Assembly: GCA_963765675.1 (NCBI GenBank)
Contig: CAVXXK010000001.1
Location: 1,568,001-1,632,000, forward strand
DNA length: 64,000 nucleotides
DNA from: an uncultured delta proteobacterium
GTDB lineage: Bacteria; Desulfobacterota; Binatia; Binatales; Binataceae
Direction of reading: 5' to 3'
Shown in pieces: positions 37,063-55,595 of the stretch. Every line of letters begins with the position of its first letter. The first letter of the stretch is position 1. A program made the position numbers and the translations under genes. The notes below the pieces were generated by a model that was not told the DNA's origin, ran no database searches, and worked only from the letters and a program-made list of their open reading frames with translations.

Positions 37063-38682
37063 ATGGCGTCTGGCCCGGAACAATCTCACCAGAATTCTCC
37101 GCAAAGTAGCGACCTGTGGCCGCATGAGGAAGCCGCGCGCGTAGCCGACCGCGTCCGCGCCTATCCGCCAGGGCGTCCGGTCATTTTCCAGAGCGGATTC
37201 GGACCCTCGGGCCTGCCGCATCTGGGCACGATGTGCGAAGTGTTGCGCCCCTCTTACGTGCGACACGCACTTGCGATGCGCGAGCCGAATCGCCCGTCGC
37301 GCCTGATCGTTTTCATCGACGACATGGACGGCTTGCGCAAGGTTCCCGAGAACGTGCCCAATCGCGAGCTGATGCAGTCGCATCTGGGCGAGCCTGTCTC
37401 GCGGATTCCGGATCCTTTCGGATGCTGCCAGAGCTTCGCCGATCACATGCTCGGACTTCTACGCGAATTTCTCGCTCCGGTCGAAGTCGATTACGAGTTG
37501 GTGCGCTCCTCCGAGATGTATAGCGGCGGCAGCTTCGATGAGGGACTGAAGATTATTCTCGCGAAGCATCGCGAGATAATCGCGATCGTCACGCCGACGC
37601 TACGTCCGGAAAATCGCGCGGGATGGTCTCCGATCATGCCGCTATGCCCGAATTGCGGGCAGATCGTCGAGCGTTCGGTGACCGCGTATCATCCCGAGCG
37701 CAACACGATCGAGTTCATCTGCGAGCGCAGCGCCAAGGCGAAGCAGGGATGCGGCTTCACCGGCGAGCAGAGCGTGCTCGGTGGCCTCGCTAAAGCGCAG
37801 TGGAAGGTCGATTGGGCGCTCAGGTGGTTCACGCTCAAGGTCGATTACGAGCTTTACGGAAAGGACCTGACCCCCTCGGCGCAACTGTCGGCGCCGATCG
37901 TTCGTATCATGGGCGGCAATCCGCCGCTCGGCTTTCCATTCGAGATGTTCCTCGACGAGCAGGGGCACAAGGTCTCGAAATCGGTCGGCCGTGGGGTCAG
38001 CGTCGATCAATGGCAGCGCTACGCGCCGGTGGAAGTGCTGAAATTTTTTCTGCTGCAGAATCCTCGGCGCGCGCGGAAGCTTTTCCTCGAATCGATTCCA
38101 CAATACGTCGACGACTATCTCGAGGCACTGCGCGAATACGCCGCCGCACCCAATTCGGAATCACGTGCCGACTCGCCGCTCGAGTTCGTGCTGCAGAAGG
38201 AGAGCCCGCGCCGCTTCGACTCGCAGCTTTCGTTCGGGATGATGATGAACCTGGTCGGCGCGCTCGGCAGCTCGGACCGCGACTTTATCTGGAACTACCT
38301 GAAAGGCTATGACGCGGCGATAGCAGGCGATCCTGAAACCGCCGCGATGGGCCGCGCGCTGATGGATTGCGCGCTCAACTTCTATCGCGACTTTGTCGAG
38401 CCCGGCAAAACGCCTTACGCTCCCAGTGTCGCCGAAACCGGCCAGCTACAGAGCCTCGCAGATTTCCTGCGCGCGAACCCCGGCGCCGCCGCCGAGGAGA
38501 TCGAGAAAATCATCTATGATCTTGGCCGCGCAAATTACGAGAAGCCCGGCAAAATTTTTCCGCTGATGTATCGCGCGATCCTGGGTCAGGAGCGCGGCCC
38601 GCGATTGGGCGCCTTCATCCGCCTGGCCACTCCCGCACGAATAATCCAGCTCCTGGAATCCGCAATCACCCGCGCCACCTGA
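37063..38682 (+). CDS. lysS: Lysine--tRNA ligase, class I
   Basis: SGFGPSGLPHLGT, DDMDGLRKVP, QWKVDWALRW, KVSKSVG, GPRLGAFI. Confidence 0.95.
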   Translation: MASGPEQSHQNSPQSSDLWPHEEAARVADRVRAYPPGRPVIFQSGFGPSGLPHLGTMCEVLRPSYVRHALAMREPNRPSRLIVFIDDMDGLRKVPENVPNRELMQSHLGEPVSRIPDPFGCCQSFADHMLGLLREFLAPVEVDYELVRSSEMYSGGSFDEGLKIILAKHREIIAIVTPTLRPENRAGWSPIMPLCPNCGQIVERSVTAYHPERNTIEFICERSAKAKQGCGFTGEQSVLGGLAKAQWKVDWALRWFTLKVDYELYGKDLTPSAQLSAPIVRIMGGNPPLGFPFEMFLDEQGHKVSKSVGRGVSVDQWQRYAPVEVLKFFLLQNPRRARKLFLESIPQYVDDYLEALREYAAAPNSESRADSPLEFVLQKESPRRFDSQLSFGMMMNLVGALGSSDRDFIWNYLKGYDAAIAGDPETAAMGRALMDCALNFYRDFVEPGKTPYAPSVAETGQLQSLADFLRANPGAAAEEIEKIIYDLGRANYEKPGKIFPLMYRAILGQERGPRLGAFIRLATPARIIQLLESAITRAT

Positions 38683-38707: not shown

Positions 38708-39241
38708 GTCCCTCTCCCAACAAGATTGGGAGAGGGTGGCGCGCGTTGCGCGCGACGGGTGAGGGACCTACAGCAAGGATTCTTTGATCCTTTCGAGCGC
38801 TGCCGTCATGTCGCGCAGCAAGTCGGGGTTCCAAAAGCGGATCACGCGGAAGCCCTGAGCTTCCAGATAGCGCGTGCGTTCGGAATCGTGTTCGGTCTGT
38901 TCCAGATGCTGGCCGCCGTCCAGTTCGACGATCAGTCTGCGCTCAAGACAGCAGAAATCGGCAATGAACGGTCCGATCGGAACCTGCCGGCGAAACTTGA
39001 AGCCGGCACAGCGGCGGCCGCGGAGCTTGTTCCAAAGCGCCTGTTCGGCGTCGGTTTGGGTGCGGCGCAGAGATCTCGCGCGGTCGCGAGTCAGTTCCGG
39101 AGGTCGGTTCATACAAGCGGAGATCATCGCAGCGAGAGCGTCCGGATTTCAATGCTGTAGGTCCCTCACCCGCGCGTCACGGCGATTGCCAAAAAAGAGC
39201 AATCGCCGCGCCGCCCTCTCCCAAACGATAGGGAGAGGGAC
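38708..39241. mobile_element. Inverted-repeat cassette carrying a DUF559 nuclease gene
   Basis: Terminal GTCCCTCTCCC / GGGAGAGGGAC; perfect 20-bp inner IR at 38756-38775/39153-39172; hairpins in both arms. Mobility is inferred. Confidence 0.65.
38768..39112 (-). CDS. DUF559 (Vsr-like) endonuclease domain protein
   Basis: RARSLRRTQTDAE, FRRQVPIGPFIADF, LIVELDGGQH, GFRVIRFWN. Confidence 0.92.
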   Translation of the reverse strand: MNRPPELTRDRARSLRRTQTDAEQALWNKLRGRRCAGFKFRRQVPIGPFIADFCCLERRLIVELDGGQHLEQTEHDSERTRYLEAQGFRVIRFWNPDLLRDMTAALERIKESLL

Positions 39242-39375
39242 AATCACGGAGAACACGCGCGCAGCTTGGCAACCGTTCCAATTATTTCCGCTCTTCTGTG
39301 TTTCCTCTTACCCTGCTAGACAGATAGCTCGGAACCTACACATTAACCCTGCAACAACCGAGCGAGAAATCAACA

Positions 39376-39480
39376 ATGGCAAGCGAACGGCAACGAAGTA
39401 TCAAGCGGCGGCGCAAGCGCAAAGAGACACGACTCAAGGCCAAGATTCGCGAGTCGCGCAAGAAAAAGAAGAAGCGTTAG
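39376..39480 (+). CDS. Uncalled 34-aa Arg/Lys-rich small protein
   Basis: MASERQRSIKRRRKRKETRLKAKIRESRKKKKKR in an otherwise intergenic gap. Confidence 0.6.
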   Translation: MASERQRSIKRRRKRKETRLKAKIRESRKKKKKR

Positions 39481-39554
39481 CGCCGCGATCTTGCATTCGC
39501 ACCCGCGGCGCCGAGCCGAGGTGCGCGCGGAATTTCTGCACAGGAGTTTTTACG

Positions 39555-48656: not shown

Positions 48657-48921
48657 TGTCCCTCTCCCAAAAGATTGGGAGAGGGTGGCGCGCGCTGCGC
48701 GCGTCGGGTGAGGGACCGACAGCGAGACTCTTTTTCCAATTCGACCGCGGCGCGAGCAATCCAAAGCGAATCTTCGAACGTTCTGTGCCGAGGGGTTCGC
48801 GTGATCGTCGGGCACCAAGCGCAGATTCTGATTCTGTAGGTCCCTCACCCGCGCGTCACGGCGATTGCTAAAAAGAGCAATCGCCGCGCCGCTTGCCCTC
48901 TCCCAATCTGGGAGAGGGACA
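48657..48921. mobile_element. Gene-less (MITE-like) copy of the DUF559 cassette arms
   Basis: Both arms nearly identical to those of 38708-39241; 12-bp terminal IR TGTCCCTCTCCC; about 110 bp of unrelated interior. Confidence 0.7.
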
Positions 48922-55150: not shown

Positions 55151-55595
55151 TCCCTCTCCCTGACCAGGGAGAGGGATCAAGGGAGAGGGTACATTGGCGT
55201 CAGCAGGCAAGCGCAAACGAGCAGTACCACTCGTGCATCAACGCGCCCGCCAATTGCGCCGCGAGCAGACCGACGCGGAATCGAATCTACGGAACCGAAT
55301 CCGCGCAAAGCGCCTGAACGGCTTCCATTTCCGGCGCCAATTTCCGATAGGCAATTTCATCGCCGACTTCTGCTGTCATGAATCGCGCCTCGTGATCGAG
55401 CTCGATGGCGGCCAGCATGTGGATCGTGCCTCATACGATGCCTGGCGTACGAGCCTGATCGCCGAGCGCGGTTATCGAGTGATTCGATTCTGGGATACAT
55501 GAGGTGCTTATGAATATGGAAGGCGTAATCGAGGCTATACTCACTGCGCTGGAAGAGACCTCTCCCTTCGCTCTCTCCTTGGACAAGGAGAGGGT
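55151..55595. mobile_element. Second, divergent inverted-repeat cassette around a DUF559 gene
   Basis: Left arm TCCCTCTCCCTG-ac-CAGGGAGAGGGA...GGGAGAGGGT; right arm ACCTCTCCC...CTCTCCTTG-ga-CAAGGAGAGGGT. Confidence 0.6.

Follow-up and report, generated by a model that had tools for sequence, protein, structure and literature searches.

A small gene just 3′ of lysS in the genome of an uncultured member of the Binataceae encodes a DUF559 nuclease and belongs to a family of small cassettes in which a DUF559 gene is enclosed by inverted arms of a triplex motif; such arms are also found singly or as pairs without a gene, in more than 100 instances across the genome. The window in which the cassette lies is a stretch of 64,000 nucleotides (G000:C1:1568001-1632000) from an assembly of 4.5 Mb with 61.5% G+C, and the closest public relatives of this genome are labelled Candidatus Binataceae. 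The architecture, the association of gene and arms both genome-wide and across phyla, the pairing of paralogues with arm classes, the conservation of the arms, and the gain, loss and relocation of elements were all observed directly. By analogy with the partnership between repetitive extragenic palindromes (REPs) and RAYT proteins, the reading that we favour, at a probability of roughly 0.55, is that the folded arm, with its inner motif, is what the DUF559 nuclease acts on, and that a hydrolytic nuclease takes the place of the HUH transposase.

Architecture of the cassette and its triplex-type arms

The features of the cassette, together with two related elements elsewhere in the window, are as follows.

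38710–38736: left outer hairpin, with pyrimidine block CCCTCTCCC (38710–38718), a 9-nt loop and purine block GGGAGAGGG (38728–38736); from the sequence and single-strand folding
38737–38756: left middle GC stem-loop TGGCGCGCG-TT-GCGCGCGAC ('type IV', 20 nt), occupying the position of the 3-nt spacer of E. coli TMECO
38756–38775: left copy of a perfect 20-nt inverted repeat, whose inner 10 nt, ACCTACAGCA, correspond to arm class C
38757–38765: left third block GGGTGAGGG, which mirrors the purine block, T standing opposite A
38768–39127, minus strand: gene for the DUF559 (PF04480) Vsr-fold nuclease, by profile match; 119 amino acids as a full open reading frame (ORF)
39123–39152, minus strand: promoter-like site (TTGAAA, 18-nt spacer, TG-GATGAT) in the gap that separates the start codon from the upstream arm; a consensus match only
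39153–39172: right copy of the perfect 20-nt inverted repeat, including CCCTCACCC (39163–39171), the complement of the third block
39172–39213: right middle stem-loop GGCGATTGC...GCAATCGCC ('type I', 42 nt), a module common to about 40 dispersed arms
39214–39239: right outer hairpin, with CCCTCTCCC (39214–39222), an 8-nt loop and GGGAGAGGG (39231–39239)
39240–39268: outer extension of the right arm, ACAATC...GAAC-GCGCGC, kept at the ends of copies in relatives
48660–48918: gene-less element of the same class, with a type IV arm, a 127-nt interior and a type I arm; also present in relatives
55152–55496, plus strand: decayed DUF559 paralogue with an arm, covering positions 4–90 of 109 of the profile hidden Markov model (HMM); a frameshift leads to a premature TGA

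The PF04480 profile matches the focal protein with E = 2.9e-41 and 140.2 bits, against a gathering cut-off of 20.6, over profile positions 4–108 of 109. The likely start codon is the ATG at 39112, which gives a protein of 114 amino acids and is the sole start kept in relatives, the upstream ATG of the ORF being absent from the copy in relative G003. The stop codon (CTA on the plus strand, 38768–38770) falls inside the left copy of the 20-nt inverted repeat, and a promoter scan at the cassette returned a single consensus match. A first-pass annotation of this DNA had described a DUF559 ORF between inverted arms, hairpins, a perfect 20-nt inverted repeat, a stop codon within an arm and the adjacency to lysS, and each of these was recovered in place. 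They do not arise by chance, as single-strand folding of both arms gives z = -5.4 to -5.9, a value equalled by none of 200 shuffles, and the architecture recurs about 122 times in the genome. Its picture of two inverted arms holds for the three 9-nt blocks and the inner 10 nt, which the arms have in common, and needs amendment elsewhere: the arms are not identical, their middle stem-loops measuring 20 versus 42 nt, and the relatives indicate that the inverted repeat reaches about 20–30 nt past the right hairpin, to about 39268, the left counterpart of this extension being degenerate in the focal copy. Left out of that description was the match of the arms to the published BoxC/PIT/TMECO triplex motif.

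BoxC/triplex-motif repeats are an orphan repeat class known since the 1990s. Each focal arm consists, from outside to inside, of a pyrimidine block, a loop, a purine block, a GC-rich stem-loop, the third block GGGTGAGGG and the 10-nt inner repeat, and the consensus given for TMECO/BoxC/PIT in the part of Holder et al. (2015; PMC4666352) drawn on here is CCCTCNCCC-N3-6-GGGNGAGGG-N3-GGGNGAGGG. The focal blocks follow the order CCCTCNCCC, GGGNGAGGG, GGGNGAGGG on one strand (38710–38718, 38728–38736 and 38757–38765, with the mirror image at 39163–39239), and they comply with the mirror-repeat rule for the third block, GGGAGAGGG facing GGGTGAGGG in the predicted triplex. The loops depart from the canonical N3-6 and N3, the first loop being 9 and 8 nt long and the second spacer 20 and 42 nt long with a stem-loop of its own; because the loop lengths lie outside this range and the second spacer is a stem-loop, the focal arms are, judged by their sequence, a variant rather than a canonical member of the BoxC/PIT/TMECO intrastrand-triplex motif. 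The canonical N3 form is carried by two relatives from other families of the same class (G031 and G039). A mirror-type third block is what a predicted purine-motif triplex requires, and in the 35 loci of the cross-phylum set described below whose purine block is not mirror-symmetric, the third block matches the mirror of the purine block in 20 and its direct copy in 1, with 14 ties.

The Binataceae arms therefore resemble BoxC/PIT/TMECO repeats in having the same three blocks in the same order, and the latter, according to the same part of Holder et al. (PMC4666352), are likewise intergenic, often form inverted tandems and are hotspots of variation. The differences lie in the 20–42-nt GC stem-loop that serves as second spacer, the 8–9-nt first loop, the extra class-specific inner motif, and the fact that the Binataceae arms bracket a gene. 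Near TMECO sites, that part of the paper reports no transposase or integrase remnants and no mobility function.

The cassette lies 27 nt 3′ of the lysS stop codon (38680–38682), lysS itself (37063–38682) encoding a class I LysRS (PF01921). On its other side follow a short basic ORF and then an enoyl-CoA hydratase gene, the cassette being upstream of both; the short ORF (39377–39481, plus strand) encodes 34 amino acids, nearly all Lys, Arg, Glu or Ser, and has no Pfam match.

Arm classes, paralogues and the association of gene and repeat

An exact hairpin pattern finds 93 hairpins in the genome, and the tripartite pattern with one mismatch allowed gives 134 matches, which come down to about 122 arms once matches whose 'third block' belonged to a second hairpin are dropped. 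Solo arms are sharply bounded, with a conserved 'ATA' just outside the pyrimidine block and a class motif just inside the third block. Arm classes were defined by the 8–10 nt adjoining the third block and were drawn from solo arms before comparison with the genes; the definition is our own and its basis is one genome. Three classes account for 98 of the 122 arms (TGCTGCTC, 45; CGGCC(TTG), 38; ACCNACAG, 15), and 24 arms carry other motifs. Since the types of middle stem-loop are mixed across the three classes, it is the inner motif and not the stem-loop that defines a class.

A PF04480 search returns five DUF559 loci in the genome (C1:182k, 1606k, 1623k, C15:113k and C3:61k), of which three are intact and two decayed, one by a frameshift (window positions 55236–55496) and the other by a stop codon and a frameshift. 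Convergent arms enclose all three intact genes, with 398, 397 and 397 nt between third blocks, and lie within 9–75 nt of the HMM match on both sides; the stop codon of each overlaps the inner inverted repeat or inner motif. The decayed paralogue of the window retains a triplex-type arm 47 nt upstream (55152–55189), and downstream there are degenerate blocks only. Each intact paralogue is paired with one arm class, and the class is different for each: both arms carry ACCTACAGCA at the focal gene, TGCTGCTCT at the C1:182k gene and CGGCC at the C15:113k gene, the three proteins being 53–61% identical to each other. Gene-less copies exist as well, as the first-pass annotation had proposed, in the form of nine convergent arm pairs found by pattern, with interiors of 58–191 nt.

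The association of gene and repeat extends beyond the genus. It was followed in 41 genomes, namely the window's own and 40 relatives (among them the unpublished G010, on which no claim rests alone). Of the 23 genomes with a PF04480 match, 18 contain the exact tripartite pattern, as against 1 of the 18 that lack such a match (G026, a single occurrence), and the reversed-pattern control matches in none of the 41; these genomes are related rather than independent, although presence and absence alternate within families f1 and f2. A cross-phylum set was formed from the best 80 DUF559 loci, from many phyla, 74 of which have at least 150 nt in both flank windows. An alignment-based test finds an inverted repeat between the flanks at z of at least 5 in 59 of these 74 loci, compared with 7 of 200 positions drawn at random from this genome and none of 64 windows displaced within the same loci, and motif 9-mers stand in both flanks of 55 of the 74. 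This test was relied on because the strict tripartite pattern, which also gave many 'wrong-orientation' matches on cross-phylum loci, is too narrow for variant blocks; the strict pattern was set aside as a cross-phylum measure. An enrichment of arms beside DUF559 genes, which the first-pass annotation took to be a consequence of its proposal, is thus present at both scales.

The same counts bear on the possibility that the arms act at the RNA level or in regulation only, as terminators, mRNA stabilisers or protein-binding sites that flank the gene through intergenic accumulation. The arms do fold very stably, are intergenic and, on the left, directly follow lysS, yet a scan of the arms found no T-tract terminator, and chance cannot give fixed-orientation arms on both sides of all three intact genes or flank repeats in 59 of 74 loci against 7 of 200 positions. 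Moreover, PIT elements are without promoter or terminator activity according to earlier work cited in the part of Holder et al. (PMC4666352) drawn on here, which also states that purine-motif triplexes do not form in RNA. A purely regulatory role is very improbable.

E. coli ycjD was considered as a clean example of the arrangement and rejected, having a partial hairpin at the stop codon, a duplication of its 3′ end and one TMECO about 170 nt downstream. In E. coli K-12 (1351000-1351860, L018), about 42 nt of the ycjD 3′ end are duplicated downstream, before the TMECO motif, and a partial CCCTCTCCC hairpin contains the stop codon. The gene occupies the site at which other E. coli lineages carry the eefRABCD operon, according to the part of a 2026 paper (PMC12817139) drawn on here.

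Several other repeats of the genome involve arms. A solo arm at C1:892360-892740 (L105 3360-3740) is nested in another inverted-repeat element whose ends begin GTCATTCCCGC, and the nested arm is reversed in the relative G009 (L110), which suggests an inversion between the outer repeats. Relative to G009, about 600 bp are inserted at C1:889179-889899 (L105 180-900), with short triplex arms of canonical type at the borders of the insertion (CCCTCGCCC-tgaa-AGGGAGAGG-cca-GGTGAGGGACC); a type II arm lies nested inside, and the insertion represents a further repeat family with triplex ends.

Gain, loss, relocation and conservation among relatives

In keeping with the mobility that the first-pass annotation proposed, the cassette is not fixed at lysS. 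It is present in full in G009, G005 and one contig of G002 (C130), with an identity similar to that of its flanks; in G001 the outer repeat survives only in bits, the G003 site shows one outer hairpin, its loop interrupted by a small element of unrelated kind, and a second lysS allele of G002 (C193) is without the cassette. Neither G001 nor the C193 allele was accepted as a true empty, naive site, parts of the outer repeat remaining in both. G002 has up to three lysS 3′ ends (C193, 88%; C130, 82%; C76, 81% identical to the window), and the presence of the cassette in C130 and its absence from C193 suggest a strain mixture in this bin. The unrelated element, of about 150–210 bp with terminal inverted repeats beginning GAGGCTGTCGATAA, was seen at the G003 lysS site (L006), elsewhere in G003 (L102) and in G004 (L009); at two G003 sites it is inserted in an outer-hairpin loop, one of them with an apparent 4-bp CAAG duplication.

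The cassette also occupies a second locus. A full cassette, 87–93% identical by region, stands there in G003:C38 and G002:C103, with the same termini as the lysS copy, including about 20 nt of the outer repeat, and G005 has a truncated copy. The orthologous cassette in G005 and G002 carries a type II right middle stem-loop instead of type I, a swap that points to exchange with the dispersed arm pool. The gene-less element at 48660–48918 is complete in G009 and G002, and G005 retains one hairpin of it, the outcome expected from loss between CCCTCTCCCAA direct repeats. In addition, a sharply bounded 91-nt solo arm of G003 is missing from G005; there was no sign of a target duplication at this indel, at the lysS site or at the second locus. 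One 279-nt contig from a soil metagenome run (X3) skips 38710–39213, with one mismatch to the window on each side and 11 nt shared at the joint; it represents an allele of the focal locus with a lone hairpin, known from this one record of depth 2.8. Further metagenome joints (38773>39155, 38774>39193 and 38784>39155) were not used, as the sequence between their two sides is undefined and they probably stem from paralogous elements.

Among orthologues, arms are 92–97% identical, compared with 59–70% for interiors of the gene-less element and 62–84% for nearby intergenic DNA; the focal right arm is less conserved, at 81–88%. Because of this contrast between arms and interiors, and because the gene-less interiors are unrelated, the family is, as far as these comparisons go, old, and the arms themselves are its conserved part. 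Compared with miniature inverted-repeat transposable elements (MITEs), the gene-less copies are similarly short and end in inverted repeats akin to those of the gene-bearing element, and one in G004 keeps a remnant of the gene. They differ from MITEs in that there is neither a target-site duplication nor a transposase, the encoded protein being a nuclease domain only, in that their interiors are mutually unrelated while the arms are 92–97% conserved, and in that single arms also occur as discrete units. For DUF559, the ratio of non-synonymous to synonymous substitution rates (dN/dS) is 0.07–0.14 between five cassette copies and 0.25 for the near-identical G005–G002 pair. The first-pass annotation had suspected the autonomous member of a mobile REP-like system driven by a small nuclease; the association and the gene-less copies agree with a REP-like system of which the nuclease would be the putative driver, and an autonomous status of the lysS copy gains no support, as this copy has been inherited vertically, with dS of 0.31–0.37 against its orthologues.

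These observations bring forward the first of the rival explanations, in which DUF559 is a guardian of the host: the repeats would spread or be kept for other reasons, and the nuclease would remove or process their structures, for example at stalled forks, the gene residing in arms for cis-regulation or being tied to them. Purifying selection (dN/dS 0.07–0.14), the long vertical residence at lysS, the conservation of arms even in gene-less copies and the variation hotspots at TMECO sites, noted in the part of Holder et al. (PMC4666352) cited above, would all fit, and the co-occurrence of gene and repeat is equally predicted if repeats are tolerated only where the nuclease is present. However, such a role leaves unexplained why every paralogue goes with an inner-motif class of its own that recurs in dozens of sharp-ended solo arms, why the whole cassette stands at two loci with identical termini, and why two of the five copies in this genome have decayed, as is typical of selfish genes. 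We consider it unlikely, though it ranks first among the rivals, followed in order by ordinary mismatch repair, homing into arm pairs and purely regulatory arms.

The DUF559 protein and its proposed partnership with the arms

The AlphaFold model of the focal protein has a mean predicted local distance difference test score (pLDDT) of 85.9. Its closest structures are, in order, 3HRL, the catalytic domain of I-Bth0305I (3r3p, TMq 0.62) and E. coli Vsr (1vsr, TM 0.49); 3HRL, a DUF559 structure with no assigned function, is also the closest solved structure by sequence match (E = 2.2e-26). Residues invariant in all 41 aligned sequences include D57, E68, D70, G71, G72, Q73, H74, D81, R84, R97 and W99, and this pattern suggests a catalytic role for D57, E68, D70 and H74. 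As far as the parts of the respective papers drawn on here extend, Vsr, DUF559 and a homing endonuclease fall in one clade (Steczkiewicz et al. 2012, PMC3424549), and YcjD has been placed in the PD-(D/E)XK superfamily (PMC1189080).

The PD-(D/E)XK Vsr-like fold, common to Vsr and VsrA, raises the possibility of an ordinary Vsr-like nuclease, engaged in T:G repair after deamination of 5-methylcytosine, with the arms being unrelated repeats that bracket a small transferred gene, or being moved in trans with the gene as cargo. Caulobacter VsrA has the same Pfam domain, and the part of Matthey et al. (2026, PMC12907096) drawn on here proposes for it a role in mismatch repair linked to cytosine methylation and reports that it causes methylation-dependent DNA damage in vivo. 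The present genome does encode a C5 methylase (PF00145, C1:955625-956716), its only one, yet a canonical Vsr (PF03852, E = 5.5e-30, G000:C1:957732-957953) lies about 1 kb from it, and none of the five DUF559 loci is near; three paralogues and two decayed copies would be hard to justify for one methylase. The methylase and Vsr at C1:955625-957953 form a standard very-short-patch repair pair. The Vsr profile PF03852 is not among the Pfam matches of the focal protein, and on the Vsr model TIGR00632, whose cut-off is 97.85, it reaches 17.2 bits; PADLOC defence-system models gave no match either. With the arm association holding across phyla as well, an ordinary repair role appears quite unlikely.

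I-Bth0305I is intron-encoded and has additional domains. Its catalytic domain, as the second-best solved structural match (TMq 0.62), offers a precedent for a Vsr-like nuclease core used by a selfish element, and it could be argued that DUF559 is a free-standing homing endonuclease gene that targets pre-existing gene-less arm pairs, the arms providing homology for gene conversion and having spread by other means. The existence of nine gene-less convergent pairs, the exchange of the middle stem-loop from one orthologous cassette to another, a sign of gene conversion with the pool of arms, and the intact and decayed copies standing side by side would be in line with this. On the other hand, the interiors of gene-less pairs (58–191 nt) are mutually unrelated and therefore offer no uniform 'empty allele' to recognise, there is one cassette per class per genome despite many candidate pairs, and the sharp-ended solo arms with class motif go unexplained. 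The focal DUF559, a repeat-flanked, free-standing single domain of 114 amino acids, is moreover only 15–16% identical to I-Bth0305I in sequence. Homing of this kind is thus a slim prospect.

A closer parallel to the favoured partnership of nuclease and arm is provided by REP/RAYT systems, in which a small gene lies between inverted hairpin repeats that are also dispersed as gene-less copies, with cognate classes, vertical persistence and no target duplication. The present system is alike in having a single small gene bracketed by inverted copies of a hairpin repeat, all three intact genes being flanked by inverted copies of a repeat with about 122 arms in the genome; in the dispersal of this repeat as single or paired copies without a gene, numbering from tens to hundreds; and in its cognate gene–repeat classes within one genome, long vertical persistence and lack of target duplication. 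It differs in that the enzyme is a DUF559 Vsr-fold hydrolase without strand-transfer chemistry rather than an HUH Y1 transposase (PF01797), in that the repeat is a three-block triplex motif rather than a GTAG- or CGTC-tagged palindrome, and in having several paralogues per genome. The four Y1-transposase genes of this genome do not adjoin arms, no motif 9-mers being found within 900 nt of them. One stretch, C10:9669-11834, repeats an arm and a Y1-transposase gene of C1:910909-913074 with the same spacing, which looks like assembly redundancy or a recent duplication.

In the proposed mechanism, the DUF559 protein would be an active Vsr-fold nuclease that recognises the folded arm, as a hairpin or an intrastrand triplex in single-stranded or extruded DNA, together with the adjacent inner motif of 8–10 nt. 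A nick or cut at this boundary would trigger repair, recombination or replication by the host, and these events would copy, exchange and excise arms and cassettes. We infer the binding and cutting of arms by the protein, the position of the cut and the insertion of new copies. As a hydrolytic nuclease cannot join DNA, the joining step must fall to host repair or replication, and this host dependence is the weakest part of the model.

Several observations weigh against this mechanism, or against the generality of the association beneath it. To our knowledge, PD-(D/E)XK-type hydrolases have no strand-transfer chemistry, and since no target duplication was seen either, the insertion step is left without a mechanism. 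Five genomes have a DUF559 match and no exact pattern match, the DUF559 match being strong in G007, G008 and G037 and weak in G017 and G022. The only DUF559 gene of G031 has variant arms, while 44 canonical motifs stand in that assembly without a matching gene; 'one nuclease, one arm type', considered as a universal rule, is contradicted by this genome and was rejected. A significant flank repeat is missing from 15 of the 74 cross-phylum loci, and the strict tripartite pattern, applied to 71 cross-phylum loci, is found on both sides in 29, on one side in 31 and on neither in 11; E. coli ycjD has the arrangement only in part. The strong purifying selection on DUF559 would be expected just as well of a gene that serves the host, the lysS copy is old and has come down by vertical descent, and the lone-hairpin, or excision, allele depends on the single X3 contig. 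The link of DUF559 to cytosine methylation in Caulobacter, as described in the part of Matthey et al. (2026, PMC12907096) drawn on here, also tells in the opposite direction.

The gene-less pairs of this genome belong with these points. No significant gene remnant was found in the interiors of seven of them (z -0.8 to 3.3), and none of the 21 comparisons between interiors reaches z of at least 5. The proposal that gene-less copies are the counterpart of gene-bearing ones accordingly stands as far as their existence goes, and their derivation from the gene gains no support, all seven pairs being without a detectable remnant. Recent deletion derivatives, or copies of one unit, were considered as an origin of these pairs and dropped; the only element that fits is that of G004, which has both arms and retains a 69-nt gene remnant (z = 14.6).

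A literature search found no description of a pairing between DUF559 and triplex repeats, and no paper that joins Vsr-like nucleases with repetitive extragenic palindromes. Among the matches listed for DUF559, none concerns repeats, as judged by titles and abstract openings, and among those listed for the triplex motif, TMECO and BoxC, which were likewise covered in part, only Holder et al. (2015, PMC4666352) deals with bacterial repeats.

What the partnership of nuclease and arm would mean can be considered from both sides. On the side of the repeat, BoxC/PIT/triplex-motif repeats are catalogued in E. coli and in thousands of genomes, we know of no origin, function or mobilising enzyme for them, and these orphans now gain a candidate partner enzyme. 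On the side of the protein, DUF559 is among the commonest uncharacterised nuclease domains in bacteria, and it gains a candidate substrate in the folded arm with its class-specific inner motif; the three paralogues and three arm classes within one genome constitute a built-in test of specificity. More tentatively, and with the odds somewhat against so broad a claim, DUF559 may form a new class of repeat-associated nucleases that read a folded motif and an 8–10-nt 'address', each paralogue maintaining its own lineage of BoxC/triplex repeats through host repair across most bacterial phyla. If true, this would be a hydrolase-driven counterpart of REP/RAYT and would account for an orphan repeat class as well as for a very widespread domain of unknown function. 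Should the nuclease act on the arms, it would represent a second, mechanistically different route to long-lived intragenomic replicators in bacteria, and a possible source of structure- and sequence-guided nicking enzymes.

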